This document shows, in pieces, positions 3,343-64,000 of a DNA stretch of 64,000 bases; the first letter of the stretch is position 1, and each line of letters starts with the position of its first letter. The notes below the pieces were generated by a model. The model did not search any database, was not told where the DNA came from, and saw nothing but the letters and a program-made list of their open reading frames with translations. The position numbers and the translations under genes were made by a program. Source of the stretch: Octopus vulgaris (Eukaryota); the NCBI GenBank assembly GCA_951406725.2, contig OX597823.1:66464001-66528000 (forward strand), given 5' to 3'.

Positions 3343-3482
3343 AGGTAAAACGCTTGCTTACCAACCATATGGTTCCGGGTTACAGTCCTACTGCGTGGCA
3401 CCTTAGGGAAGTGTTTTCTACTATAGCATCCGGCCGAACAAATCCTTGTGAGGGGATTTGGTAGACGGGAACAGAAAGAAGT

Positions 3483-3536
<54 letters not shown>

Positions 3537-3770
3537 ATGTGTGTGTGTGTCCTTGTGTCTATGTTCCCCACCACCCACTATCACCTGACAACAGATGTGG
3601 GTGTGTTTATGTCCCCGAAACTCAACAGTTTGACAAAAGAAACCGATAGAATAAGTACTAAGCCTAAAAAGAATAAGTCTTAGGGTCGAATTTTTCGACT
3701 AAAGTCGGTTTCCCAGGATGTCCACATTCAAATGACTAAAACATGTAAAAAGAATAAGAAAGAATAAGAA
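3343..3770 (+). mobile_element. tRNA-derived SINE family A with internal (TA)n/(TG)n tract
   Basis: tRNA-like head (GGTAAAACGCTTGCTTACCAACCATATGGTTCCGGGTTACAGTCC), internal microsatellite and AAGAAT tail. Collinear with the copies at 16923 and 58277. Confidence 0.85.
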
Positions 3771-3774
3771 TATG

Positions 3775-3817
<43 letters not shown>

Positions 3818-3821
<4 letters not shown>

Positions 3822-4766
3822 TAAGCAATTAAGGGTTTAGCAACGAATTGCCTCACCACACACCGAATTTAGAAATAGCAGTCAAAGAGTTATAGCTATT
3901 CTTTCTACTAAAAGGGAGATCTCAGTAAAAACACAGCACTTGAAAGGCAAACACAGACAGGTAAGAGAGAATGAAATGACGGCAATCTATCATACAATTT
4001 TAAGTCACCTACGGACGTACGTTTCGAAATCAAGTTTTAGGAAAGCATAAGAATTAGATAATTCTACCTTACACAACTTCTCTTCTCATCAGCGTAGGAC
4101 ACTACAATTATGAATAATTGTATATTAATTTTTGAGATACTAGAAGGCATCATCTCAACTCAGTATCAGAGCGAGCTAAAGCTATTACCAGTACCACCAA
4201 ATTCAAAGTGTGAATGAAAGTTTGTGTCACCAGCCCCTTCCCTCCCGCGTGTAGCCAAGACAAGATGCTGTGGTCATTTACTGGGATGAAATATGGTTAT
4301 CAGTAACAATAAAGGGTGAAATTAATTAATTTGGAATAATTATTAATTACACCAAGTGGATTTCGGCATGTAAAAGCCTCATTCGAGGAAAATTTAAGTA
4401 ATACTAAGCAATTAAGGGTTTAGCAACGAATTGCCTCACCACACACCGAATTTAGAAATAGCAGTCAAAGAGTTATAGCTATTCTTTCTACTAAAAGGGA
4501 GATCTCAGTAAAATCACAGCACTTGAAAGGCAAACACAGACAGGTAAGAGAGAATGAAATGACGGCGATCAATTTTAGTAGAAAGAATAGCTATAACTCT
4601 TTGACTGCTATTTCTAAATTCGGTGTGTGGTGAGGCAATTCGTTGCTAAACCCTTAATTGCTTAGTATTACTTAAATTTTCCTCGAATGAGGCTTTTTTA
4701 CATGCCATAATTAATTCTACTTGGTATATATTATATATATTATTCCAAATTTAATTAATTTCACCC
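3818..4766 (-). mobile_element. Hammerhead-containing non-coding retroelement (retrozyme-like or Penelope pLTR) with partial tandem and inverted arm
   Basis: 170-bp direct repeat 3818-3987 / 4401-4570 (period 583, 2 mismatches seen). Inverted repeat 4314-4496 / 4573-4766. Hammerhead core at 4008-4098. Bounded by (TA)n on the left, with another (TA)n about 120 bp to the right. Confidence 0.75.
4008..4098 (-). ncRNA. Type I hammerhead ribozyme
   Basis: Minus strand reads CCUACG-CUGAUGA-G…(long stem II)…C-GAA-AC(GUAC)GU-C-CGUAGG. This gives a 6-bp stem I, a complete catalytic core, a G10.1:C11.1 pair, a short palindromic stem III and a GUC cleavage triplet. Confidence 0.85.
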
Positions 4767-4879
4767 ATTTGTTTGCTTATCAAAATTGTTACTAAAAGAA
4801 TTTCACCTATTAAATTTAAATTACTTCAATTATTTATATTTCTTTATATATCACCACTCGTGTTCGACATCTCCTTTTT

Positions 4880-5023
<144 letters not shown>

Positions 5024-16922: not shown

Positions 16923-17285
16923 AGGATATATGACAGTGGCTGCGTGGTAAGTAGCTTGTTTCACACTGGGCAAGTATCATCTACTATAGCCTCGGGCCGA
17001 CCAAAGCTTTGTGAGTGGATTTAGTAGACGAAAACTGAAAGAAGCCCATCGAATATATATATGTATGTATATATATGTGTGTTTATGTTTGTGTGTCTGT
17101 GTTTGTCTCCTCCAACATCGCTTGATAACCAATGCTGGTTCGGCAAAAGAGACCGATAGGATAAGTACTAGACTCACACAGAATAATTATTCCTGGGGTC
17201 GATTTGCTCGACTAAAGGCGGTGCTCCAGCATGGCCGCAGTCAAATGACTGAAACAAGTAAAAGTAAAAGAGTAAAAGAGTAAGA
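16923..17285 (+). mobile_element. tRNA-derived SINE family A (internally deleted)
   Basis: GTGGCTGCGTGGTAAGTAGCTTG head, body CTACTATAGCCTCGGGCCGACCAAAGC, and 3' end GGTGCTCCAGCATGGCCGCAGTCAAATGACTGAAACAAG followed by (TAAAAG)n. Confidence 0.85.
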
Positions 17286-17530
17286 GTGCCATAATCTTCT
17301 ATATGGAATAAATCCAAAGTAAGGTTGTCTCTGAAAAGCTTATACACACCTGATGCCAACTATAACAGTTGAATTTAATGTTTTGAAACTGTATATACTA
17401 ACGTAACGTTGGTACAGCTCTTTCAACCACAACAGCGATAATAAAATTTCTTGGCAGTCGATATAGTGAATCCGAGTTCCATACAAAATGCCAACCCACC
17501 AATTCGTTGTTTCTTATTCTATAAACTCAG

Positions 17531-18288
17531 TACACGAGGTCTGATCAATAGGTATCCGGACTGTAGTCATAGTAACGAAACTGAAGCACACAGAGTGAAA
17601 CCACTTGGCCTTCAACTATGCTGTGCATGCACATTAAGTTTTAACATTGTAGCTCACTTCTGCTCTTTACAGCAGTGCTTGGAAGGAACGTGTGTCGCGT
17701 ATTATCGTCGCATTGACTATGACAGGGAATGTTGTCATGGCGATACCTGCTCAGAGTCCTACGCAAAATTGCAGAAACTGTACGGAGAGGTGTGTATGAG
17801 CCGCACACAAATGTACGAGTGGTTCATACGTTCCCAAGATATCGATATTGACGACCGTTCTTGGGAGACCCGCAACCAGCAGTCTATTATCACTGAAGAT
17901 TCGAGTATGACACGCGCGGCTGCGAGGTTTGTGCTAAGATTGCTTCCATCTGTCGAAAAAGACACTCGGCTTTCAGTTGCACAAGTTTTCCTGGATTCTG
18001 TCAAGAATGAAGAATTTTTTTTGAAAACTTTGCGTAGATCTTTGAGCAGATAACGCCAAGCTTTTTGTAACATTTGATGCAGATTCTCTGCTCAACTTTC
18101 TCTGTCATGGTCAATGCGACAATCACTCGCTACGCACCTTCCTTCCAAATACAGTTGTTAAAAGGAAAAGTGAGCTAGAATGTTGAAACTCGGTATGCAT
18201 GGGTCAATCTGTGCCAAGCGGTTTCACGCTGCATGCTTTAGCTTCGTTGCTACGGCAATAGTCCGGATATTTATTGATCAGACTACTA
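17531..18288 (+). mobile_element. Non-autonomous mariner derivative with ~250-bp inverted arms
   Basis: Left end TACACGAGGTCTGATCAATAGGTATCCGGAC and right end GTCCGGATATTTATTGATCAGAC. Internal peptides GDTCSESYAKLQKLYGEVCMSRTQMYEWF (mariner HTH) and IITEDSSMTRAAARFVLRLL (WVPRLL-like linker). No DD34D domain. Confidence 0.85.
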
Positions 18289-19163: not shown

Positions 19164-19232
<69 letters not shown>

Positions 19233-19237
<5 letters not shown>

Positions 19238-19465
19238 CTTTACTACCCACAAGGGGCTAAACACAGAGGGGACAAACAAGGACAGACAAAGGGATTAAGT
19301 CGATTACATCGACCCCAGTGCGCAACTGGTACTTAATTTATCAACTCCGAAAGGATGAAAGGCAAAGTCGACGTCGGAGGAAATTTGAACTCAGAACGCA
19401 ACGACAGACGAAATACGGCTACGAATTTCGCCCGGCGTGCTAACGTTTCTGCCAGCTCGCCGCCT
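19233..19465 (-). mobile_element. tRNA-derived SINE family B, tail type B2
   Basis: Minus-strand head AGGCGGCGAGCTGGCAGAAACGTTAGC, box-B-like GAGTTCAAAT, core GCCTTTCATCCTTTCGGAG and tail CCCCTTGTGGGTAGTAAAGAAATA running into (TA)n. Confidence 0.9.
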
Positions 19466-20294
19466 TCAATATATATATATAAGTTTTCCGCTTCTGATGA
19501 TGATCTCAATAACCCAAAAATGTCAACGATACTTTTCGCAATTGATCTCTGGGGGGTTTCATATTCTGTATCTTGTTTCATGTATTGAGATCACAACGGA
19601 CAACATTATTCGCGGCGGGAAATTAGAATGTTTATATTGGGATAATCTCAAGATCTAAACTTCGCTACTCATTCGAGCACTCCAGCTTAATTTGTTGACA
19701 GTTAATCCTAGATGTCTTGCGGTACTTCATTCCACGAGGTTTTGTCCGAGAAGCGTGTGTATGGTAGCTAAAGTGAAGTCTGTTCAACGAATTCGATTAA
19801 TTCAAATTTATTCTCTTTTAGATGTGTATTGTGTTTTTCTACCTATCGGATGACAGCAAGCAGATCATATACGAGATTTTTCCAGGGCCCTACTTCGTCG
19901 ACGATATTCAGAAGTTTACAATCAACCGGGAAGAATATAAGGTTGCTATTTGATGACAAAGATGTTATGAATGTAAATATGTAAATGTATCTTTACATTA
20001 TGAATGTAAAGATGTTATGAATATAAATACTTAATAGGAGTGAACCCGATATTGTGTGTGCGTGGGGGTGGATGTGTGTGTATGTGTGTGTGTAATTTGT
20101 CTTCTATCTTTTAATTGTTTCACGTATTAGACTGCGGCCATCATGGGGCACTGCCTTAAGTTTTACTCCACAAATTTGACCCGATGACTTATTTTTAGAA
20201 GTCTAATAGTTATGCTATCGAACCACTAGCTTATGAGGATGTAAAACAGCAAGATCGGCTAACACGTGGTGGTCAGGCACAGATATACACAAAC

Positions 20295-34589: not shown

Positions 34590-34803
34590 AATTCTCTAGT
34601 CTAGGCCCAAGGCCTGAATTTCTCGGAGAGGGCGCCAGTCGATTAGATCGACCCCAATACGCAACTGGTACTTAATTTATCGACCCCGAAAGGATGACAG
34701 GCAAAGTCGATCTCGGCGGAATTTGAACTCAGAACGTAACGGCAGACAAAATACTGCTAAGCACTTCGCTCGGCGTGCTAAAATTTCTGCCAGCTCGCCG
34801 CCT
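34590..34803 (-). mobile_element. SINE family B, tail type B1, full length with probable TSD
   Basis: Complete head, core and tail. Flanking near-repeat TACATGTTCCCAT (34568-34580) / TACATATTCCCAT (34804-34816). Confidence 0.9.
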
Positions 34804-37800
34804 TACATATTCCCATTTCATCGCTTCCATTCTTTAATCATTTCCCACATTCTTGTAGTACACTTTCTTGTAACAATATAGGACATTTAATCGAATTTCA
34901 CTCTACAGAATAGTAAAAGATAATGTATAGAAAATATAATCTAATTTAACAATATCTAACTATGGAAGAGTTGTCAGAATAGGTGGTGTTTATTAAGATA
35001 TACCTTCATGATCAAGATTTGTAATGCATTCACAGGAAGGAGTCACAGAAATGAATAGAAATAGTAAAGGTATTTTAAAGCATTTAACCAATAAATTAGC
35101 TTTCGTTAGAGAAGCAACACCCTAGCTCAAGGAAGATTAAATATTTAGAAATCACTAAATTTCAAAACAGAGAAAAACATGGAAATATTAGAAAATTTGA
35201 TATATTTAATCTCTATTTGTAGAAAACAATTAATTATTCCAAAATATTTTCAAAATAAGGGATAACTAGACACTTCACCATCCTTTAGATTATCATATAA
35301 TTTTTGTACGTTTCTTTACCAGTCAGTAAATCAAGTTTCCATCTATCCTTCAAGATGATAGTATATTGGAATCTACTGAATGGAAAATTTTCCTCCCTTT
35401 AAATATTGGCATTTGGCCAAGTGAAAAGAAATGAGTATATATAAAATGCAAACTGTGGGTTTGATATAAAATCAGTCAGGCAGGAAATCGTTAAATACAA
35501 TGCAATTGTATTATGACGACGTGAGAGAGAAAGCGCTTAAGACCATTGAATATTTTGATAAATTGCAAGTGATAATAGATTAGTTTATAGTCGCCCGGGG
35601 GATATTTTTCCAAAATTTAATCCGAAATATTTTATGCTTCTCAAAGAATATTTACGAGAATGGTCAAATTGAGCCAATGATATATGTAAATTAAAATAAA
35701 AGTTGCAATTGAGAAATCAATTGAATTTAATTTTTCCAGATCAAATCTGCTCGAGGAAATCTTTAATCATATATCTTTTTTTTTATTAATTTCACAATTC
35801 ATTTGCGATAGAATGTTTTTAGTGCTACTTTATCTATTATCTTCTCTTTAACAAAATGAGGTTCTGATGTTAATCCTCATGTGACACCCGGGTCGATTGC
35901 TCGGCCTAAGTGATACAAGCTGTACGAAATTTGAAGCCGATCCATCGGTCCGATGAAACAAACCTTTTGAAGTATAACCAGGGATCGTTTTTCAGTAGAT
36001 ATAATCCAAAACTATATCATACATTTCGTTTTACTTACTAATAAAGTAGTTTTAGGCCTTTATCCTTTCTTTTCTGCGTGTACCCATCAATTTCAAGCTC
36101 AACAGAAAATAAAAACTTTGGTGCTTTTGGCTACACATACCAAAACACCGTAAGTCTCAAAAATTTGACTATTAAGTTTAGAAAATCGTGACCAGTCTCA
36201 CGCTTCCTCTCTCAATACATTTTCGCTATCATATACAAATAATTTTTTAAATGTTTATTTGTTTATATTTATTTTTGACATGGATCGTGTGTTTTATGTA
36301 CATATGTAGACACAAGCAGGCGTATACACCTCCAAGTAACACTCAACCCCGCCCTTGACCCTTCACTATATCTATGATCTGTCAACTGAATGAAGGGAAA
36401 ACTGTTCCAGCACCCATCTGGCACTCATTTACATATGCAACATGAAATGAGAGGCTTTGCTAAAGGATACAACGCGGATTCCAGTGCAGAAATTAAAGTT
36501 ATAATGTCATGATGATGAGTTGATCCCCCAAGTCAAGTAGCCCCTACTTGACTACGTGACTTCCCGAAGAGACAAAATCAGAAAGGAAATTCATTATTTA
36601 CTTCTACCCACCTAGATCTTGCGTTGGATTCTCGGGAAGAAATATACTAAAAAAGTAATTCGATAGATTAAAATACGTTAAGCGAAAATATCGATGAAAA
36701 GGAAGTTGCTTATTGTTATTGGCAAACGTAGATCTAAAACAATATTTTTTCCGATTCGTTTTATTGTTTGGTTTAAGTTTTGGCTTTCATTCATCCTGTT
36801 TTCTTGTAGCCTTCTTCTGCTTGTTTTTTTTTTCTTTTGCAAATGTAAGAAATCGCTATTAATCGCGTTAGAGAGGTACAGGTATGTAGATGGCAGTGGT
36901 GGTAGGATACAATGAGGCTTTTAGCTACGATATTTTACAGTCTAAGATCAAATCTCAAAGGTAGTCGATTTTGACTTTCATTCCTCCTGCATCGAAGTAA
37001 AATACTTTGTTCGACTATAACTTTTCCCAAACATTTAAAACGAATCTGTTATCCTACATATAATACGCAAAATACCTGGCAGCAAAAAGTTTCGATCATT
37101 TTCTCTCAGTTCTGACCTCGTCCACGTTCACTTTGTCATTTATCCTTCTGGGATCGCTAAAATAAGTATCGATCATTTTGTTGCAGGTTGATATAAGCGT
37201 TAATAAGCACTTCACTCTCAAATGATAAAAAAAACTGTTTCGTTTTATGAATATTTTAGAAAATACAATGTTTGTGAGTGGCAGAAAGAAGACCAACACA
37301 AGTTAGCTGCTTAGCAGTGTTTCGTTTTGTCCATCTATATTTCATGTTGAAATCTCAACCATGTCAATTGTGACAGGAATGTTATTTAGTTTCTCTTATC
37401 ATTTTCATTTTTAGCAAAATTTCTTTCGTGCTTTCAACAGTCCCCTGATAACATATAATGAATATCTGACACATACTGATGGACATTTTATGTTTTCTTT
37501 AGAAATCGCTCGTGTATCAGCAATGTAATAAATCAAGTCCAATTTTATTCTATTGTGATACAATCTTGCTTATAAAGTTTGCTCTTGTTGTTTTCTTACC
37601 CTTCAGATTTTGTTATTTTATATATACAAACAAAAATATATCGGTTAAAAATCTAATTTCTTTTCTTCCAGTGAATATAGGAAAACGAAATTGCTTACGA
37701 GAGGTTACAACGATTTCAAGCAACATTTCCTCTCGAATAATTGTTATATGATATATGAACGCCGTATCAATTCGGGAAGTGATCAGTCATTAATATTACT

Positions 37801-38032: not shown

Positions 38033-38300
38033 TTTTCTACTCTAGGCACAAGGCCGACAATTTTGGGGGAGTAGGACCAGTCGATTAGATCGACCCCAGT
38101 ACGCAACTGGTACTTAATTTATCGATCCCAAAAGCAAAGTCGACCATGGCGGATTTTGATCATAGAACGTAAAGACAGACGAAATACTTATTTCTTTACT
38201 ACCCACAAGGGGCTAAACACAGAGAGGACAAACAAGGACAGACAAACGGATTAAGTCGATTATATCGACCACAGTGCGTAACTAGTACTTATTTAATCGA
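38033..38300 (-). mobile_element. B1-B2 composite SINE, left part, interrupted by the gag-like element
   Basis: B1 tail and core to …GACGAAATAC (38186), joined to a B2 tail TATTTCTTTACTACCCAC…ATTTAATCGA (38300). SINE head sequence resumes at about 40125. Confidence 0.85.
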
Positions 38301-40124
38301 TGGGAGTAGATCTCTTGGCTCCCTTAACTGGTTTTCCGTAGCAACAATGACATCAGGTTCCGTAGCAACCTGATGTCATTAAGGAAGCGACCTTGCTTCC
38401 ATCTTGACCCCAGGCCTCGCACATTCAAACAACCAGCATGAATACAAGCCATCTGCTTACCTTAACATCAGTGTCTTTCGGCCTTGTCCATTTCCTTTAC
38501 CCGGGTTTGTAGGGTGGTTTGTCATAGGTCCTCGTACATGGACTTACTGAAGTCCAACCTCGGGGTGGGGCGGCTATGTCTATGGGAAAATATGATTTTA
38601 ATATTACAAGGTTTATATCGTTTATTCGTATTATCATAATTCCTTCTGGAAGTTTAGTTTAATGTTCTTTGAAGATTTCTTCTGCAGGAATATTTCTAAT
38701 TCGAGTTGTTAATTGTAGTTCGTGGCATTTATTGCCACTAAGAGTAACTTGTTTTGTCATATTTTTCCGGGGCCGCAGGGGAGATGTGATCTTCCTGTGT
38801 TGGGCAGAAGGGATGTACGGGGGAGGGTTATCGGGAATGGAGGATGGGGATTGTAGGGGTGAAATATCAGGGCTTGAGGTTATCGGGGTTGGAAGGAGAG
38901 GATATTGGTTTTTTTTATTGAATAGTGGTAGTGGGGGGGTAGTTTGAGTTTCATGTGTGTCTGTTAAGGAGGTTTTTTGTTGTTCGATCTGTATGTTTAA
39001 GGGTGGGATTGAAGTTCTTCCTTTTGGTTAATTTCTTCCATTTTAGCGTTGACCATCCTTCTTCACTCCCAGCTGGTTGCGTGTTTTCATTGCTGGGAGC
39101 CTGCTGATCTTTCTTCTGTGTCTCTGTCTCTTCTGGACCCTTTTTTTTTGGGGGGGGGCTTTCCACCTTACTGGTAGGACAATTTGCCCGACTGTGGCCT
39201 TTCTCTCTACATACGAAGCACCGGGGTCTTCTCCCCTCCACCATTACCCGTAAGGTGGTTTCTTCTCCGAGCTGTATGTTCTCTACGATCTTTTCCAGGC
39301 TCTGTGGCGCTGCTTGGATAATGACCTCGAGGCCTTTCCCCTTCCAGCTTTGCTGGTGTATTTTTGAGGCCTGTAATATCGTTATTTCTACTCCTATCCC
39401 TATTAGTAGGGCTGGAAGTAACCATGATACGTTTATTTCTGGCGGAATCACTTCTATCGGGATTCTTAGCGTGCGCGTGCCTAAGTATGTTAACAGCAAC
39501 TCAATGTCCAGGGTTCTCAAAGGTTGCATTGAATGTGTTTTTGCTTTCTCTTCACTTTTGAAATACACCACTACCGTGGCAAAGCGTTTGCCTCTGGTCA
39601 AGTGTTCTATGTCCTGCCAGATCAGCTGTAGGCATTTTCTATAGCTATGTTGGTGCTTTGTCTAGTTTCTTTTCCTTTTTCTTTTTTTTTTTTGCCGTTT
39701 CTTCTATAATTTCACTCGAGATGGTGGCTTTTACATCGTATCCCCCCTTTGAAAACATGATTTGGTGCTGTATTAGTTCATTTTTGTCAATACATAATTT
39801 TCCTTTTTCCCTCAAGCCGCAGCTGCAAAATTAATCTTTTTTGCCGGTTCGACAAGTTTTTCTGCTGTCGGCATACTTAATATTTCACAGTTTTTTCACA
39901 GTTATTTTCCTCTACAGAGAAAGTATTCATTTTTAACATAATAAATTGTGGAAAAACGCCACAAAAATGGATAATTCTGCCCTCACAGAGGGGAATAAAA
40001 GTTCACTCCATGTGCCACGCGCAGAACGGTATTATCAACAACACAAAGAAAGGAATGCAACAACAACAATTCTAGCACTAACCTTTAAGCAAAACACAAC
40101 ACAGAATTAATCACCAGTAACAAA
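38301..40124 (-). mobile_element. ~1.8-kb retroelement carrying only a gag/ORF1-like region
   Basis: Sharp boundaries inside a SINE. Contains a CCHC-knuckle ORF and no RT or endonuclease motifs. Three hairpins at the 38301 end. Confidence 0.65.
38951..39601 (-). CDS. ORF1/gag-like nucleic-acid-binding protein fragment with one CCHC zinc knuckle (L1/Tx1-type ORF1-like); probably the 3' part of a frameshifted longer ORF
   Basis: 216-aa ORF with VMVEGRRPR-CFVCREKGHSRANC (CX2CX4HX4C), preceded by an RRM-like alpha/beta region and followed by a basic/acidic disordered tail. A possible upstream ATG near 39874 is separated by frameshifts in poly-A runs. Confidence 0.7.
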   Translation of the reverse strand: MTRGKRFATVVVYFKSEEKAKTHSMQPLRTLDIELLLTYLGTRTLRIPIEVIPPEINVSWLLPALLIGIGVEITILQASKIHQQSWKGKGLEVIIQAAPQSLEKIVENIQLGEETTLRVMVEGRRPRCFVCREKGHSRANCPTSKVESPPPKKKGPEETETQKKDQQAPSNENTQPAGSEEGWSTLKWKKLTKRKNFNPTLKHTDRTTKNLLNRHT

Positions 40125-40160
40125 ACCGCTAAGCATTTCGCCCGGCGTGCTAACGTTTCT

Positions 40161-40388
40161 TATTTCTTTATTGCCCAAAAGGGGCTAAACATAGAGGGGA
40201 AAATAAGGACAGACAAACGGATTAAGTCGATTATATCGACCCCAGTGCGTAACTGGTACTTATTTTATCGACCCCGAAATGATGAAAGGCAAATTCCTCG
40301 ACGGAATTTGAACTCAGAACGTAACGGCAGACGAAATTCGGCTACGCATTTTGCCCGGCATGCTAACGTTTCTGCCAGCTCGCCGCCT
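40161..40388 (-). mobile_element. SINE family B2, full length
   Basis: Collinear with 19233-19465. Its tail abuts the SINE head fragment ending GCTAACGTTTCT. Confidence 0.9.
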
Positions 40389-40402
40389 TATTGGAAAAGA
40401 AG

Positions 40403-42203: not shown

Positions 42204-42420
42204 AGGCGTGCTGGCAGAACCGGGCGAAATGCGTAGGCGTATTTCGTCTGCCGTTACGTTCTGAGTTCATATTCCTCCGAGGTCGACTTTGCCTTTCATT
42301 CTTTCGGGGCCAATAAATTAAGTACCAGTTTCGCACTAGGGTGGATGTAATCGACTTAATCCCTTTGTATGTCCTTGTTGGTCCCCTCTATGTTTAGCCC
42401 CTTGTGGGTAGTAAAGAAAT
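42204..42420 (+). mobile_element. SINE family B2
   Basis: GAGTTCATATTCCTCCGAGGTCGACTTTGCCTTTCATTCTTTCGGGG…CCCCTTGTGGGTAGTAAAGAAATA running into (TA)n. Confidence 0.9.
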
Positions 42421-42639
42421 ATATATATATAGTCCTTTGTACAGTAATATGTCACAGTATACAGACGCACAACACATATATATTTATACATATATATATA
42501 CATATATTTACGCATAGGTGTACATATAAAGATAAATAGATGCAGCCATATTAATATACATACATGCATATATACATATATATGTGTGGATAGATAGATA
42601 CATAAATACATATAGCCAATCTATGTTTCACTCTAAGTT

Positions 42640-43456
42640 TCACGTCCATAAAACACTTAGTTTTACAACGTTTATTTAGGCCCTAAAACCCGTTGGCCTG
42701 CGGCCTCTCTAGAAGTGGCTTCTCTACAAAATGATGGAGGAAAATACTTCATTATTCTATGTCAACAATTAGAGATTGTGTTCGTTTGACCGCTAGTAAT
42801 TGACCATGTTGGTATGTGGATCCAAGGATGCCTGCAGGAATTTCTTGAAGTGCAAGCAGAGTCTGATGACCTCTGTCCAGAAGTTAAGGTTGTACCTCGT
42901 GTCGAGGAAGTCTTTTAATATCATCGTCTGTTTTGACTATGCACAGTTTACAACGCTTGGTCCCATTTATGTAGGGCCTGGTGATCTTCCATGTTATTAC
43001 GTGTAGGGTTCCGTCGTCTTTCAGCCGCCATACATGGCTGGCTAACAACTTGGCGTATATCTTTTCCAGGATCCTGAAAGAGGGTCTGTGTTTGGAGAGG
43101 CGCTGTTTGAACGAGTTACTGGAAAATCCGATGTATCTCCGTGTGCAGGTGTTGGCTATTCTGTTTCTGTTGATGTTGACGCTGCTGCTAAGATTGTTGC
43201 TGGTGCTGGTGTTGTTGGTATTGGCATTGTTGGAGATGGCGCTGATACTGGTGCTGGCGCCGGTGCCGCTAATATTGGTGTTGGGGACACTTTTGATGGT
43301 GACGCTATTGCTCGTGTTATAGCTATAGCCGTTGGTGCTTCTTGGAGCTGTTCTCGGTGCTATCATGGTGGATGATGTTATCGATGTTGTTATTGTTATC
43401 ATTGGTGATGGCTCTACTGCTATTTGCGTTCAGGATAAGGCCGTTGATGTTGCACG
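42640..43456 (-). pseudogene. Penelope GIY-YIG endonuclease 3' part with upstream S/T/N-rich low-complexity region
   Basis: ORF 42884-43402 contains RRYIGFSSNSFKQRLSKHRPSFR…LASHVWRLKDDG…ITWKITRPYINGTKRCKLC, a typical PLE endonuclease C-terminal half. Confidence 0.8.
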
Positions 43457-43457
43457 C

Positions 43458-43730
43458 ATTCCCAACAGACACAACCTAAAGGTCACTTTTAGCTACGACC
43501 CCAATATTAAGAGCATTTTAGTCAACACGCCTAGGCCACGACCAGAAGCGGGATGCTCATGCAGGGAGTGCAACTGATGCCCAGGTGTAGGCCATTGTAA
43601 AACCAAGGCAATCGCCTGCAGGAGCAGTATTGACAATACCAACAGCACCAGCAGGATCCCAGGCAAAAATAGCAATAGCACCATCGCCTGCAATAACAAC
43701 AATAACAACAACAACGGCTGCACCGACCGT
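43458..43730 (+). pseudogene. Inverted upstream part of the same Penelope ORF (RT-EN linker and Cys motif)
   Basis: IPNRHNLKVTFSYDPNIKSIL…CSCRECN*CPGVGHCKTKAIACR resembles IFNRNTVKVSYSCMPNIKSII…CNCR….CPL.G.CLTKSIVY. Confidence 0.75.
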
Positions 43731-45720: not shown

Positions 45721-46712
45721 ATTCGTTCAACTCCCGTTTAACTTTGATTGAAAAGATCTATAGTCGTAGTTCATGCCTGGATTTAACCTTTCTCTTCATG
45801 AGTACTCTTGGCTATATTATTCAATTTTCTCTTCCTTGTTTTCTCGGGGGGGGGGGGTTTCGCCGCTATTTTTAGTACGTCGATTTCATCATGTATTTCT
45901 ATCAGAGTATTTCTACCAGAAATTTAGAGGATTTTTCACTCACAAAAATTTGTGATTTTATAACAACTTTGAATGATAAAGAATACAAAATGATTTTTTC
46001 CCGCTTTTCTCTCAAAAGAAACACACTCAAACTTATATACACACACTGCATGAGCCATGCCACACACTCACTAATACGCACACATGCATTTGCGTTTAGA
46101 CAAACACGCACACACACACACATTTAGAGATACACACAAATATATATGGACGGACACATGAATGCATATATATTTTTCTGTCTGCTGAACTCGGGATTTG
46201 AGCAAAAAGGCTGTGGAAGCTGTGAGTATTTGACAGAAACTTTCATGTATGCGCGGTCTGATGAAGTGAAACTTGAAGTAGACAGGCAGATGGTCGGTTT
46301 GTGAAAATCAGATACGAAAAGTTTCGTATTATCGGAGGAGTGTTAAACAAGTTGAGAAGAGGTGATAGTTTTATTTAGATTTGCCTTGAATGGAACTGTA
46401 GTGAATGGAGACGATGAAAGAAAGGATTACTCAGTATATTTAGTGAAGTTGAGGCGAAATCGTTAGCGCGACGAACAAAGTGCTTTGCGGCATATCTTCC
46501 AGCTTACATGCTGAGTTCAAATGCTGCTAACATCGACTTTATCATTCAGCCTTTCAGAGTCGATAACATAAGTAGCATTTGAGCTTTCTGATCGATGTAA
46601 TAAGCATCTACCTCCTCAACATTGCTGCTCTTGTGTCTATAGGAGAAATAATTATTTAGTGAAGTTCGTCCATTTGGTAAGTACGTAGGCCGAGAGAAGT
46701 GAATATTAAAGA

Positions 46713-46938
46713 AAGCGGCGAGCTGGCAGAAACGTTAGCACGCCGAGCGAAATGCTTAGAGGTATTTTGTCTACCGTTACGTTATGAGTTCAAATTCCAC
46801 GTGGTCGACTTTGCCTTTCATCCTTTCGGGGTCGATAAATTAAGTACAAGTTACGCACTGGGGTCAATATAATCGACTAAATCAGTCTGTCCTTGTTTAT
46901 CCCCTCTATGTTTAGCCCCTTGTGGGCAATAAAAAATA
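46713..46938 (+). mobile_element. SINE family B2, full length with 18-bp TSD
   Basis: Perfect flanking direct repeat AGAAGTGAATATTAAAGA at 46695-46712 and 46939-46956. Confidence 0.92.
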
Positions 46939-48163
46939 AGAAGTGAATATTAAAGAGTCTAGATTGACACCTTTTCTAAAACGTTTTTTTCTAAAAATCT
47001 TTCTCCATTTGCTACTGGTTATTTTGAAATATTCCTTTATTCTTTTATGAATGACTCCTATCACAGAGAAAAAGTTCTCGATATTATTTAAGGGGTAATA
47101 TTTTATTGTGTATAACCACTCTCCTGAGAGTGTTGGGCAAAATACCTTACAGACTTTTTGCAACGCTTGATGATTTGGATTCAAATGTTGTCCAAGTCAA
47201 TTTTCCTTTTTCCACTTCGGTGTTAATAAAATAAAGGATTCAAATATTGAGTCGAAGCTGTGGACTGATACAATTGGCAAACTTTTCGAGAAAGATATTA
47301 CGATTGTAACGAATATACTTAGCGTCTTAGATAAGTCTGCCAAAAGAGGTATTCCTGTAGCGTGGATTAACACTGATTGGCCGAGTTTGAATATGGCATG
47401 TTTCAGAAAGAATTTGAAATTCAACTGTAGATTTGAGAGAGTTTCCTGCGGTTTCTACCGACTGATTCTACGTTGTGGTTCGATTAGCTTGAAATAGCAG
47501 CTACGTTTCCTTAAAATAACACTACCAGCTTATGAACAAAAATACACACTGATGTACATGATATAATAATGACTTAAATGTGCTTAATTAGGAGTATGTT
47601 TAATCAGTGCTCATACTAACAACAGCTAATTTTAGCGCGACACTTAATCACACGACGCTCTGGAAATATCAAGCAAAATTACTCCAGAGTCTATTATCAT
47701 CAGCAATTATATTCATGGCTGAAATACATTTGATTATAAGTCCGTTTCATCAGAACTTACTTTGGGAAAATCAACAACCAATTTACAAATTAGTTCTAAG
47801 ACATATTAGAAATAGCAGTTAAATCTCACTCGAATCATCCCCCACCGTCTTGAAAAATCAAAGACACCTCTGTCGGGTAATTTTGACCTTTATATGCAAA
47901 ACACATAATGGTTTTGAATAGACAGATTTAACCAACAACAAACTTTGAAACGTGTACAGCTACAGAGATATTTTTGTTCCCTCTTATTGGTTCACTGTCA
48001 CAGTTGCAAAACTGTGAATGTAATCAGTTTAATCAACTCCGCTACTGGGGCTGATTAAATCATTTCATCGACCATCGAGTGTTGAATAACAAATTTCGCC
48101 TTGGATGATTTCGTGCTCTGAAGGCATAACGATGAAACAAGATATTCGCGTATGAGAACTACA

Positions 48164-48307: not shown

Positions 48308-50034
48308 GAAAGAATTGATTTCATTCCTAAATCAAGCACAGTATCGAATATATCGAAGGAATGAGTAAACTCGACTGAATGGATACAATGTCAATGCAAT
48401 AATACTGATTTTGTCGAACTTAGGAAGATTGTATGGCTGAATATACAATAGCGTAACTCGATATTGCAATTAATTTCATCCGCAATTTATCGCTTTTGCA
48501 CCTCAATTAGAATACTCGATGGGAAAAACTATTCAAAGAGCATATTTTGTATAACCTCCATCGTGTCGGTGAATAGTGAGTCACTTATTTGATTATGCGA
48601 TATTTCTGGCAAAAACATACCCAAGATTCTCCTTCTGTTATTTTAATTCATTTATTGATATATTTATTTATTTTGCCATCAGTTACATTGTATCGATGTG
48701 CAGCACTTTTGGTAACAAATCATAAGAGGTTGAAAGAGATCAACGATTACATAACGCCAGTAGATGTCATTTCAGATCGGTAGCACTGTTAACTTTAATA
48801 GGGAAAGAATAACCTAAGAAAAATATATCACCAGGAAAAAGAAAAAATGCGCATACCAAAAGCAATTGCTTTGAATCTTCTCAAGCTAAAATACAAAGAC
48901 ATTTATTAAAGCAGGCAAATATAATTTGTAAGGAAGGATAGCAGAAAAATAATTCTGCATAAGGGAAGGTTTGAGAAAAGAAATACTAATCATTTTAATT
49001 TAGAGAATGAAGAGATTTTAATGAAATGTTTCGCAAGAACAATAAAAAAAAGACAGAACAAACACATTGAGCGCACGCTTATACACACAGATTTGGAATT
49101 GGAAGTCAATCGCTATTCTATGATTAAGTATCGTTCGAAATTTTGACAACACGACGCTTCCAAACCCTTTTTCCTAACAATTCAGAGATTACGTAAGTTC
49201 CATTATTTGTCACATAAAATAAATTACATTTGGCATTGAGTTTGATATTGATTTTTTTTTTTTCGTTTTTTTTTTTTTGTGTGTATTAGCAGAGGTAACA
49301 GATTTATTAGTTGAGGAGTTTCGATAATTGAATAGATCGCAATATACGGATAGCAATTATGGTATCATTCTCGTGAGTAATGAAGGTCAAAGAAAACTCT
49401 GGCGCTCTTTGAATTCGCTACGACGTTTACGTCGTGGTGGACATCAGAAAATAAATAAATACTAAGAGCAAGGTCAATTTCTATTGTACCATATTCCAGC
49501 GCGAAAGCTTCCAGCATTATTATTTCTTTTCAAATATTGTCAACGAAAGAATAGAAAAAAAAAGTGAAAATTACTTCGAAAGGGATCTACCAACATGGTA
49601 ACCAAACGGCATGCTGTAATACAGTTGAAAAACTGTGAAACACGTACTTAGCTGAATCACAATCTGGTGATTGAAGAAATACTCGACTACGATAAGAAAT
49701 AACAACATAAAACCTTATTTTTTAAATATTTAGCTTAGATGATTCTTTCTGTGAAATCGTGCATTGAAAGAAATTTTGTTGTGTCTTGTGTGAGGTTGCG
49801 TAAGTCATTATGCCAATATTAATAACGCACGCACAGATTAAGTTGTATAATAAGTGAATATGCCAGTGGAACCCATCCTAGATACCGCGGAATACATTGT
49901 ACAGAGCTAAAATATAGTATAAAGCTGATAAATACCAAGGGATGATGTCTGTAAAGGCCATGGGAACTTAGCGAGTAGGTCTACGAAGGCCCTGATGGGA
50001 AACAAACTCAGCATTAAAATCGTTGAGTGACCAG

Positions 50035-50245
50035 AGAGATCCCTCAGACCACAATTATATAAGACAATACCACATGCACTAATAGGAACTGAGTGGCGTG
50101 TACCTTTAACCCCAATATTAATTGTAAGTCCAGGTAAGTAGTCTCCAGCATAAAGTATATGAAGGGGTATTGTAAGGACAGGAATACAGCATACATTGGG
50201 GAGACGTCTAGGAGTTTAGCAGAGAGGCTAAATAAAAAAAAAACA
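50035..50245 (+). pseudogene. Penelope-like GIY-YIG N-terminal remnant
   Basis: IPQTTII…NRN*VACTFNP followed by KVYE/GYCKDRNTAYIGETSRSLAERL resembles IPYVKG…GI.T.FKP…VYEIPCKDC..VYIGETGRSL..RL.EH. Confidence 0.7.
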
Positions 50246-50629
50246 CCTGGTGGGTGTATGACAGAAAACAGTCGTCCAATCAGCATGCCAGATCTGCATA
50301 GCGACACATTACACCGAATCGACATCCGTATTTTATACTGAACAGGAAATATACGTAGCTAGTAGTAGTACTTCTAAGCCACTGTTACCGCCCACGCATA
50401 ATCATACATAGGTGCCTCCGTGTGGAGAGACAGGTAGGTATGTATGTATGTTGGTACGTATGAATGTATGTATGAATGGACATGCGTAGATAGGATTAAA
50501 TGACAATAGAATTCAGGTAGGTTCATAAAACTATACACGTAAATTTGTACACATCCATTTTGTAAAATCAATAGAGATATACGCGTAATTTTGTTTCGTA
50601 TCCATACAGTTCATGAACACGTACAGACG

Positions 50630-52484: not shown

Positions 52485-53056
52485 TGCATTGGCCAGTATT
52501 CTATCGGTGACATGCTTCTGAAACGCAAGGAAAAAAAGTTTTTCCTGGAGCAACTGGTAACTGGAGATGAAAATGGATTGTTTACGATAAGATATAGAGA
52601 AAAATATCTGGAGCGTGCGTGAGGATCCTCCAAAACACCTTCCAAAGCTGAATATTCAGGTCCCCCAAAGTAGCTTCCAAAGCAGAATATTCATTCTAAA
52701 ACAGTTATGCTTTGAGTCTCGTGGGATTTCAAAGACATTATTTACTATGAGCTATTCAACAAAATTCTGATGTGTACTGCCATCAGCTCGCAAATTTCGA
52801 TCAAAAAATCAAGGAATTGAGGCCAGCTCTCTCCAACAGGAAAGAGGTAGTTTTTCACCAAGACACTTCCCGCTTTATCCTTGCGGGTAACACTTTGGTT
52901 ACCCGCAAAAATTACATACACTTGTGTAGAATCTGTTTCCCCATTCACCATACCCTACGACATTGCGCCATCTGGCTAGCGTTTGTTTTTCTTTCTGCAG
53001 AACACTCTAAAAGGAAAAATCATTTAAGGATTTAGAAACCACTTAGCATTTTTCCA
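52485..53056 (+). pseudogene. Mariner transposase catalytic-domain remnant (mellifera-subfamily-like)
   Basis: SIGDMLLKRKEKKFFLEQLVTGDE/WIVYD, IHSKTVML*VSWDFKDIIYYEL, NSDVYCHQL…IKELRPALSNRKEVVFHQDTSR and HSPY…DIAPSG*RLFFFLQNTLKGK. All three DD34D motif regions are present but degenerate. Confidence 0.85.
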
Positions 53057-55002: not shown

Positions 55003-56749
<1,747 letters not shown>

Positions 56750-58276
56750 TTTAAACGGGAGATTATCTTTAAGAGCAAGTTTTTCACGCTAAAGCACTCC
56801 ATACTTCCGAAGCCGAAGAGGAGCCCTCCTCCACTACGTTACCTATTTAGAGAGAAGAATATCTTCAGCGGAGATAAAGTTCCTCCAGATTCGACGTCAC
56901 GTGCTTTGGGGACGGCGTTGCCCCATCGATGTGAAACGCAACGGTGGTGTTTACGTATGGGACCACAGTAGATATCTTCCTGCAGATAGAAGCAGATTAA
57001 TTAGAAAGGATCTCAGATATTATCCAATAGAGTGGAGCCGCTTTTGCAGTTGGAGGCAGAAGACTAATGTGCCATTTGTGTGGTGCAAGGCATTAAACAG
57101 TATTCTTTGATGATACTACAAGGTAAAAAGTCAAGTGATGCACCACAAGAGTAAGCCCAAAAAAGCAGGAGATTAGCAAATTACACTGCAAATAAAAAGC
57201 CAGAACGCAACAAGTCACTACAGTATCTTCCTCCAGAAAAGTCACATATCAAAATGAATAGTTAATGAAATAAATACCAGTAATAAATAAGGGCATGGCG
57301 GATATTCAGATGACATATATTCACTGCATTCTTTTCAAACGTTACTTTATTTTCCATCGCGTCAAAAGAAATCGATATTATACTTTACTTCTTTCAGTAA
57401 ATATGTAGTATATTATCAGTGTATATATTTTTAATAGTTCACCATATTGAAAGGCGATATGATACATTGCTGCAGATTTTAGGTTTTGCTGAATTGTGCT
57501 TTAGTGAAAGTATTTTAGTAATAAATCATTGTAGTCATTGATTATCTTCACTTGCTTTTCTTTCCTTTCAGAGATGAGCCATAAAATATTGAAACATAAT
57601 CTTATATAAATACGAGGCATGCTTATGTTCATTCATGCACCATATAATTAGTATATTTTAGTGTAACCGCGAAATTGGTCCCATTACACTGTGAAACATG
57701 TTAAACGAATTTAATGCTCAATAATGGTAATAAAACTGCCCCGAAAATCTGTATATAATATCTCTTCAGACTTTTTTATTATCATAAATCATTGATAACG
57801 CTCTATACTATACATTAAAATCGTCCCTGTTTATAAGCTACTAAATAATAAAACTGAAGCAAAACGGAGGATCGAAACCATTTACCGAATTGATATGTGT
57901 TTTCCAATCCGTGAATGCTTGTAAGGAGCTTATCAAATTCTGTGTTTAGTTGAAAAGGTATGGAATAATTCAAATGTTGTGGGAAAGGAAGTACTCAAAA
58001 GATTGGCTCCAGCGAGGAAAAATATTTTTGTTTTTTGGAATATTTATTATTTCTTTTTCATTTAGCTGGTTTCAAATTAAATCACATAGACATGCACACA
58101 CACAAAAGTACGTATATACATACATGTGTGTGTGTGGTATGTATCTAGATAGTATTCTGGGCAAAACGATTACTCAAAGAAGAATACATCACAAGGCATC
58201 AGTAATGTACATAATTCCTCATCTCTTAAATATAGATCTGTATGACCAGCATATATCGCAGTCATTAGGATCATCC

Positions 58277-58687
58277 TTTACTCTACTCTTTACTTGTTTT
58301 AGTCATTTGACTGCGGCCATGCTGGAGCACCGCCTTTTAGCCGAGCAAATTGACCGCAGGACTTATTCTTTGTAAGCCTAGTACTTATTCTATCGGACTC
58401 TTTCGCCGAACCGCTAAGTTACGGGGACGTAAATACACCAGCATCAGTTGTCAAGCGATGGTGGGGGGACAAACACAGACATACAAGTATATACAGACAT
58501 ACATATATATATATACATATATACGACGGGTTTCTTTCAGTTTCCGTCTACCAAATCCACTCATAAGGCTTTGGTCGGCCCGAGGCTATAGTAGAAGACA
58601 CCTACCCAAGGTGCCACGCAGTGGGACTGAACCTGGAACTATGTGGTTCGCAAACAAGCTACTTACCACACAGCTACTCTTACGCCT
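58277..58687 (-). mobile_element. tRNA-derived SINE family A, full length
   Basis: Minus-strand head AGGCGTAAGAGTAGCTGTGTGGTAAGTAGCTTG…GTTCCAGGTTCAGTCCCACTGCGTGGCACC, an internal TA/TG tract and a (AGTAAAG)-type tail. Confidence 0.9.
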
Positions 58688-63140: not shown

Positions 63141-63328
63141 TATTTCTTTACTACCACTAACGGATTAGGTCGATTACTGGTACTTAATTTATCGATAACT
63201 GGTACTTAATTTATCGACCCCGAAAGGATGAAAGGCAAAGTCTACCTCAGCGAAATTTGAACAGCGGCAGACGAAATACGATTACGCATTTCGCCCGGCG
63301 TGCTAACGTTTCTGCCAGCTCGCCGCCT
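63141..63328 (-). mobile_element. SINE family B2 (with deletions and a small internal duplication)
   Basis: TATTTCTTTACTACC tail, duplicated ACTGGTACTTAATTTATCGA and head …GCCAGCTCGCCGCCT. Confidence 0.85.
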
Positions 63329-64000
63329 TATGACGTTCGAACATTTCCACTAATAAGTCGCTCAGGGTTGTTACTTTATTTCTACCGAAATAAATTGAAT
63401 TTTAATTCAGTCGCATTTGAACTCGGTGATGAGAGTAAAAACAAGAAGAACGCAGAATTCTGTCCGACCCATTAACAGCTTTGTCAATTAATGAAGGGCG
63501 TGGAGAGAAACGCTACTGCCGTGCTGGAACTCCAATTCATTTTAAGCCCCTGTTGACGATTTTAGTTCACAATTTTGTGTCTCGTGAAAACGCAGCGAGT
63601 TTGATATATTGAGCAGCAACATGAGTTTGTATACGCGTTGTACTACATCATAGAGAGTTAAATGTCGTTACCACAAATTCTCAATGTTACTGAAAATTCA
63701 ATATCGTCCAAAAATTAGACCCATTTATAAATTTTTATTGGAAATGTAATCATTTTCAACCGGTTGAAGACGCAAAGTAATCACGTTTATTGCTCGTTTG
63801 AATAATTTAATGGACGACAAAATCGCTTGATCATTAACTGAACTCCAGTGCACGTTTGCCATTGACTTCTTTGAAGTATGACAATTTGCTCGGTATACAT
63901 TGTTCTGTTATAAATATAGAAACGTCTCAGAAATGTACCAAAAATACATTGGTTTCACATACAAAATGTATGATATTTCTTTTCGCTTACCTAGCATAAG

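Follow-up and report, generated by a model that had tools for sequence, protein, structure and literature searches.

Insertions of Penelope-like elements (PLEs) have been described as partial tandems next to which lies an inverted, 5'-truncated copy, with a tail of 30–40 bp at one end, and several PLE clades show a bias for (TA)n, the endonuclease-bearing (EN+) Neptune, Hydra and Naiad elements being TA-targeting (Craig et al., 2021, PMC8557442). The protein of the anole PLE Poseidon PAc cleaves both strands of AT-rich DNA and extends them, begins reverse transcription (RT) from two internal sites whose spacing equals the tail, and can cut within its own pLTR, with unprocessed RNA as its main substrate and hammerhead cleavage dispensable in vitro (Frangieh et al., 2024, PMC11167929). 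Minimal hammerheads in PLE pLTRs have been described as well, together with the proposal that circles are copied for more than one unit (Cervera and de la Pena, 2014, PMC4209133). The same authors defined the non-LTR retrozymes, showed their circles in coral, mussel and axolotl, and named PLEs as the likely mobilisers (Cervera and de la Pena, 2020, PMC7229834). Most recently, units of 51–972 bp and pLTR homology for many Xenopus families have been reported, along with a criterion of two complete hammerheads for an “active” retrozyme and in vitro cleavage of 1 of 9 Xenopus retrozyme dimers (Li, Clavereau and Pollet, 2026, bioRxiv 10.64898/2026.07.22.740005).

The link between retrozymes and PLEs is already published (PMC7229834; bioRxiv 10.64898/2026.07.22.740005), and the element presented here adds no new mechanism. 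So far, the case for PLE mobilisation of animal retrozymes has been built on co-occurrence and on pLTR homology, and local tandem expansion is the alternative route. In this element, a non-coding unit whose hammerhead is of canonical type displays the PLE inversion and tail signature. In the literature on octopus and cephalopod hammerheads, ribozymes and retrozymes we found no earlier description of such a family. The giant squid paper reports 235 Rfam hammerhead-1 loci (PMC6962438), and the part of the O. vulgaris repeat paper drawn on here gives 190 PLE families with no mention of ribozymes (PMC13282606). The family may already be catalogued in the O. vulgaris repeat library, Repbase or Dfam.

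The window analyzed is a 64,000-nucleotide stretch of Octopus vulgaris DNA, and the features discussed below are collected in Table 1. A repeat search of the window sequence finds a 583-nt unit present 1.28 times head-to-tail. The raw direct repeat (3818–3990 and 4401–4573) has a period of 583 and 98% identity, with mismatches at positions 3931, 3984 and 3988; since the latter two sit inside the inversion junction with its 6-nt filler, the repeat proper is 3818–3983 and 4401–4566, which is 166 nt with 1 mismatch. An earlier reading of the letters alone (hereafter the sequence-only reading) had proposed a partial tandem of about 1.3 units with a 170-bp repeat, a period of 583 and 2 mismatches, and this architecture holds, the span it gave being 4 nt longer. 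The truncated second unit ends 30 nt before the equivalent hammerhead cut site. At the left end, the element adjoins the (TA)n tract that had been put forward as its insertion site, with positions 3818–3820 assignable either to the tract or to the element. This left flank provides the AT-rich target feature of PLE insertions, at one locus and in a window with many such tracts. BLAST finds no further copies of the unit within the 64-kb window.

Table 1. Positions of the element, its ribozyme motif and the neighboring features, numbered from the first letter of the window.
Feature	Position	Strand	Remarks
(TA)n tract at left junction, likely target	3770..3820	.	TRF and sequence
Complete non-coding unit	3818..4400	-	36% GC; variant contigs throughout in 4/4 runs
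Second unit, upstream, 5'-truncated	4401..4566	-	pseudo-LTR-like direct repeat
Junction filler between 5' ends of the two arms	4567..4572	.	6 nt
Inverted 5'-truncated copy	4573..4668	+	equivalent to 4496->4401; 100% identical
“Tail”	4669..4706	+	36 unit-nt plus 2 slipped T beyond left-end stop
Decayed in-register continuation of unit	4707..4815	+	equivalent to 4364->~4276
Type I hammerhead	4004..4103	-	descriptor and folding; putative ribozyme
Helix I	4098-4093 with 4013-4008	-	6 bp
Hammerhead core	4092-4086	-	
Helix II	4085-4026	-	4 bp, then 2x2 loop and long extension; 21 pairs predicted
GAAA	4025-4022	-	
Helix III, palindromic tetraloop	4020-4017 (tetraloop)	-	2 bp
C17	4014	-	predicted cut 4014/4013
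Predicted long-range stem	4450-4441 with 4371-4362	-	10 bp; encloses left-end equivalent; tail end in 3' arm
Neptune-type GIY-YIG endonuclease remnant	42932..43324	-	inverted piece 43434-43688 (+)
Weak GIY-YIG-like stub	~50018-50338	+	HMM iE 0.14; atlas 0.95
LINE-like C-terminal (zf-RVT), CCHC-knuckle ORF1-like and Tc1/mariner transposase fragments	55169-56750, 38951-39661, 17445-18053, 52751-53035	-, -, +, +	
Short repeat family 1	19223-19472, 34637-34810, 38187-38300, 40157-40392, 42220-42431, 46709-46942, 63196-63331		
Short repeat family 2	3344-3765, 16967-17285, 58273-58667		

On the far side of the junction, 4573–4697 is the reverse complement of 4372–4496, perfect over 125 nt, and the inverted arm continues to 4706 with two extra T before it decays. 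Of the arm of about 190 bp that had been claimed at first, the perfect 134-nt part stands, while the remainder is decayed. The arm overshoots the left-end stop by 36–39 nt, a range that reflects the ambiguous left end and is taken from this locus only, and the decayed homologous flank makes its exact end less sharp. By analogy with described PLE insertions this overshoot is a Penelope-type “tail,” a feature that is new relative to the sequence-only reading. The partial tandem, inverted truncated copy, one-sided 30–40-nt tail, AT-rich target and position of the hammerhead upstream of the inferred RT starts are all shared with EN+ PLEs and PAc; the unit differs from them in having no RT-EN ORF, in a hammerhead that is not of the minimal type, and in inferred RT starts that lie about 190–230 nt 3' of the cut site. 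The insertion anatomy (partial tandem, inversion, 36–39-nt tail and TA target) thus fits the copying by a PLE RT/GIY-YIG protein that had been suggested, the step itself being deduced from this anatomy.

The ribozyme motif was located with a descriptor scan, which finds one complete type I hammerhead in the unit, on the minus strand, as the single match across both strands of the 64-kb window. When the unit was dinucleotide-shuffled, a relaxed match appeared in 1 of 5000 cases and a strict match in none of 5000, so the claim of one intact hammerhead per unit, with a cut at about 4014/4013, is borne out at the level of the motif. Relative to the minimal hammerheads of metazoan PLE pLTRs (PMC4209133), the type I topology, a palindromic helix III suited to dimers and a long helix II are the same, but here there are 6 bp in helix I and 2 bp closing helix III, no extra base precedes helix II, and helix II is roughly three times longer. 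The palindrome of the helix III region comprises 8 nt and pairs with itself at −9.8 kcal/mol. The 2x2 internal loop is placed at the usual position of loop 2 and so may substitute for it. The fact that the constrained active fold has an energy of −18.6 kcal/mol, 3.5 kcal/mol higher than the minimum of −22.1 kcal/mol, counts against activity. In the ensemble of the circular monomer, the pair probability is about 0.95 for helix I, about 0.4 for the base of helix II and about 0 for helix III. The ribozyme strand as a whole folds with a z of −4.2 (linear) or −2.8 (circular) relative to shuffles, against −0.7 for the opposite strand in the circular case. Rfam reports no hammerhead in the window at gathering score and no hammerhead family among 12 matches up to E = 10, probably because of the long helix II; judging from this element, long-helix-II hammerheads escape Rfam.

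A hairpin at 4385–4360 (minus strand) was considered as a second ribozyme and set aside, as it has no intact core or helix I and does not align to the real motif. Its core-like flank lies beside the tail end, and it could be what is left of an ancestral minimal hammerhead, or else belong to an RT start signal.

The unit is non-coding, as had been supposed: the longest Met-initiated ORF on the circularised unit has 35 aa, and no significant PLE protein or HMM match was obtained. Specifically, tblastn of the unit gave a best E of 0.07 against 22 full-length PLE-type proteins and of 0.018 against 150 shorter PLE-type matches, and HMMs built from those proteins had no match in the unit, these tests covering Neptune-type proteins only, with two long fusions left out (22 of 24 used). 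The unit contains no ORF or remnant of RT plus GIY-YIG between pLTRs. A 23-codon ORF following the hammerhead was entertained as a PLE N-terminus and received no support from tblastn or HMMs with the 22 Neptune-type proteins. Four short motifs of the unit gave 0 matches in the supplement of Craig et al. (PMC8557442), and an exact 19-nt motif scan of viral contigs gave 0 loci; one metagenome-contig locus with the exact 19-nt motif was discarded as chance, since its likeness is confined to those 19 nt in a locus of 57% GC.

To describe the family as well as the single copy, we turn to sequencing runs. Part of the stretch is contained in 20 of the 24 runs listed (four coded species labels, eight studies, best share 0.55), and four runs were aligned at 85% likeness, with X1–X3 taken as DNA (the kind of X1 being without record) and X13 as RNA by guess. 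Contigs over the unit number 3785 in X1, 2381 in X2, 1592 in X3 and 176 in X13, the last of which were not counted as evidence of transcription, none of the listed runs that contain part of the stretch being recorded as RNA. Summed depth ranges from 3.9e4 to 8.1e5 across the 17 bins of 3822–4433 in X1–X3, save for one X3 bin at 2.7e4, and single joints have 15–99; although summed depth is itself no copy number, we infer from this hundreds to thousands of copies. That the element belongs to a multi-copy family, as proposed before, is supported by the fact that variant contigs cover the whole unit and no bin lies at single-copy depth. The share of contigs that continue into unlike sequence is 0, 0 and 0 in X1–X3 and 0.04 in X13, and 20 of the 24 listed loose ends are, by eye, variants of the unit itself (352 more exist). 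Among the listed loose ends and pieces we did not find a dominant exit from the unit into an ORF.

The 583-nt cycle can be followed through these pieces. The 32 listed ones (of about 8000) bridge 494 of its 583 bonds at 31 letters per side, 554 at 20 and 574 at 15; without X13, the 24 remaining listed pieces bridge 385, 516 and 556 of 583 at the same three lengths. The unit junction is crossed by one piece (X2 record 23, 4303–4429, with 16 other letters). Since nearly all listed pieces carry several other letters, they derive from other copies, which argues that the 583-nt cycle is a property of the family and not a local deletion of a coding PLE. This bears directly on a reading in which the element is debris left by the pLTR of an autonomous PLE, the period of 583 nt arising from an internal deletion here or in a few copies and most family members being truncated ends of coding elements. 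Such a reading draws on the observations that PLE copies are mostly 5'-truncated stubs and that hammerheads occur in pLTRs, in some cases with a small palindromic helix III (PMC4209133), that the 190 PLE families make up 6.83% of the O. vulgaris genome (PMC13282606), and that the per-site depth in X1 falls to about 700 at 4073. However, the depth dips fall where letters found in this copy alone lie clustered, and pieces of other copies span them. Depth stays above the single-copy level in every bin of the unit, no dominant loose end leaves the unit among those listed, and similarity to PLE proteins of Neptune type is absent in any frame. The unitigs are short, so a minority ORF branch could be hidden. 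We consider the debris reading decidedly unlikely.

The joints between contigs provide a further view of the family. Among the 15 joints listed (at least 15; 6 more exist), 13 are inversions, comprising 10 that jump into the arm, and are therefore head-to-head inversions, and 3 strand changes; the other 2 are deletions. Near-symmetric fold-backs account for 8 of the 12 mapped inversion joints, at varied positions. Each joint rests weakly on 1–2 contigs with sides of 18–50 letters, so that only their pattern counts. The repeated occurrence of inversion joints across other copies, at many positions, speaks against an origin not driven by a PLE, whether as a satellite, as a SINE-like element mobilised by a LINE or as a DNA-level duplication, with the arm as a repair or assembly artefact. 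The noisy outer arm, without support from the runs, and the LINE and Tc1/mariner remnants that the window also holds would be in keeping with such an origin, but the arm duplicates sequence that had already been copied, the tail is one-sided, and there is neither a tRNA head (0 tRNA genes found) nor a poly(A) end in the unit. We therefore regard this possibility as very improbable. Taken together, the high copy number, the near-complete colinearity, the lack of a dominant ORF exit and the inversions make a non-autonomous element, and not the pLTR of a coding element, the most likely identity, and we hold it very likely that the element is non-autonomous and PLE-mobilised, whatever the shape of its template.

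Two local features of the runs can be added. One joint to the opposite strand, in a single contig, is broken at 4016, 2–3 nt off the predicted cut. At 4290–4330, X1, X2 and X13 show a drop in summed depth to the left of about 4326, and position 4298 is the end of one long contig; the step near 4326 may be a further 3' end of the family or merely a divergent patch.

The sequence-only reading had called the family young, which suits the insertion but does not extend to the family. The segments of the insertion are nearly identical, with 1 difference in 166 nt and 0 in 125 nt, and the near-identity of the three segments means that the insertion is recent or homogenised. The family itself is heterogeneous: of the X1 contigs, 692 have a likeness of at least 99%, 1260 of 95–99%, 1464 of 90–95% and 369 below 90%, such that 1833 of 3785 are less than 95% alike. 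At 17 of 31 listed sites of the unit (at least 2.9% of 583), this copy has a letter other than the majority one in two or more of the three DNA runs, and minority alleles at 3902 and 3956 are common to all three segments of the insertion. Within the hammerhead, pairing is kept by a variant at 4082 that turns a helix II G-U into A-U in all depth of 4 of 4 runs, and by one at 4095 that turns a helix I A-U into G-U. Up to 38% of depth carries a variant at 4028 that disrupts a pair of helix II, and the core position 4091 is altered in 22–30% of summed depth in the DNA runs, the latter counting against the explanation favored below.

The explanation that we favor, and consider probable, is the recent insertion of a high-copy 583-nt hammerhead element mobilised in trans by Penelope-like RT/GIY-YIG machinery from a linear RNA template of more than unit length. 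A locus with more than one unit would be transcribed on the ribozyme strand, and the PLE protein would bind the region 3' of the hammerhead and nick both strands of AT-rich DNA. RT would begin inside the RNA at two sites about 36–39 nt apart (the equivalents of 3818–3821 and 4365), one per target strand, with the 4365 equivalent, which would be the start of the right cDNA, lying 36–39 nt further 3' than the 3818–3821 equivalent of the left. The left cDNA would extend for 749 nt, past one uncut hammerhead, and halt 30 nt short of the next site, the right cDNA would halt after about 134 nt, and a head-to-head joint would connect the two. Precursor RNAs would have their 5' ends trimmed by the hammerhead, which would probably act either as a dimer paired at its palindromic helix III or with the help of protein, and may also release monomers that circularise. 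The predicted 10-bp stem spans both inferred RT start sites, and one family variant turns a G-U of this stem into A-U (place 4625, equal to 4444). We detected no DNA match between the unit and the PLE remnants of the window, and comparison with them did not reveal an autonomous partner with matching termini.

This insertion is compatible with a linear precursor that begins at an upstream cut as well as with 1.3 rounds of copying around a circle, and the linear template is favored modestly. The circular case corresponds to the classical retrozyme cycle, in which 583-nt monomers arise by self-cleavage from tandem loci, are closed into circles by ligation, and serve a PLE RT as template for more than one round of copying. 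Other copies show the unit closed on itself, the canonical helix sizes (6 bp in helix I, 4 bp at the base of helix II, 2 bp in helix III) are those of the circle-makers in coral, mussel and axolotl, the fold of the ribozyme strand is, as given above, more stable than that of its shuffles, and the alleles common to the three segments, including the minority ones, are as expected of one template copied twice. A homogeneous tandem source would share alleles too, however, and a two-hammerhead locus was not seen. In addition, the copy halts 30 nt before the second hammerhead site, as would a linear RNA from an upstream cut (a single case, with a chance of about 5%), and cleavage is dispensable in the only PLE studied in vitro (PMC11167929). 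On this evidence we find the classical cycle rather unlikely. Since the family has many dispersed copies, the distribution of their ends in one long-read genome could decide between a linear and a circular template.

The comparison to described non-autonomous elements is informative for classification. With animal non-LTR retrozymes the unit shares its non-coding nature, a GC content below 45%, a canonical-type type I hammerhead with a weak palindromic helix III, the head-to-tail repeat, co-occurrence with PLEs and proposed PLE mobilisation, and its 583 nt lie inside the 51–972 bp range. It exceeds, however, the 150–450 bp of the retrozymes of Cervera and de la Pena (PMC7229834), its helix II is greatly extended, it has 1.28 units and one hammerhead in place of an array, its PLE inversion and tail are directly visible, and its circular RNA is putative. 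The Chlamys non-autonomous element MRC1 is similarly non-coding, with pLTRs and head-to-tail insertions, and is moved by a PLE, as we suppose for the present unit, but Chlamys elements are algal, mostly without hammerheads, and have 3' similarity to a known partner (PMC8557442). In its presumed way of working the element resembles a retrozyme or a non-autonomous PLE. No hammerhead-bearing second unit is present at our locus, and the window has one hammerhead. This single hammerhead places the locus outside the published “active” criterion of two complete hammerheads, and we therefore file the element as a retrozyme-like non-autonomous PLE derivative.

The decayed extension at 4707–4815 does not fit the preferred linear-template model. 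It has 86% identity over 57 nt at 4713–4769 and weaker in-register similarity to about 4815, and it is almost bare of contigs at a likeness of at least 85%, with a depth of 14–16 in two X1 bins and 0 in the other bins, where the lack of coverage in bins 4722–4829 is not counted as proof of absence. Either an older copy was the landing or priming site of a new one, at the homologous position, or the extension is assembly noise from the palindrome. The former would suit a variant in which the 583-nt circular RNA is itself copied for more than one round by the PLE protein, as an octopod retrozyme with a long helix II that homes into older copies, the RNA just beyond the tail pairing with the nicked target DNA there. 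If true, a homing circle would be a direct genomic link from animal ribozyme circles to the PLE mechanism of tail and inversion, though we judge it quite unlikely. Immediately outside, 4830–4880 holds the end of a different high-copy repeat, next to (TA)n at 4883, with a summed depth of 7e3–1.1e5 in three runs and no other copies in the window.

The window offers some context on possible partners. The best match of the endonuclease remnant at 43.1 kb in an HMMER search is an Octopus bimaculoides protein with 51% identity, in support of an octopod host, and a word-index protein search with the same remnant gave no match. The Neptune label follows from the longer matches, which carry a C-terminal EN and a Cys linker (as described in PMC8557442). 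Judged by this protein similarity, the remnant shows that PLEs exist in the genome. Downstream of it, about 42660–42625 on the minus strand, lies a segment that we take, by eye, to resemble the decayed 3' half of a minimal hammerhead. The weak stub near 50 kb is probably from another PLE clade. PLE remnants had been called abundant in the window, which proved too strong: two were found, one clear EN and one weak and GIY-YIG-like, and an RT remnant was not detected. The window also carries LINE-like, ORF1-like and Tc1/mariner fragments, all under Pfam cut-offs, and two dispersed short repeat families with several window copies each, which are likely SINEs (Table 1).
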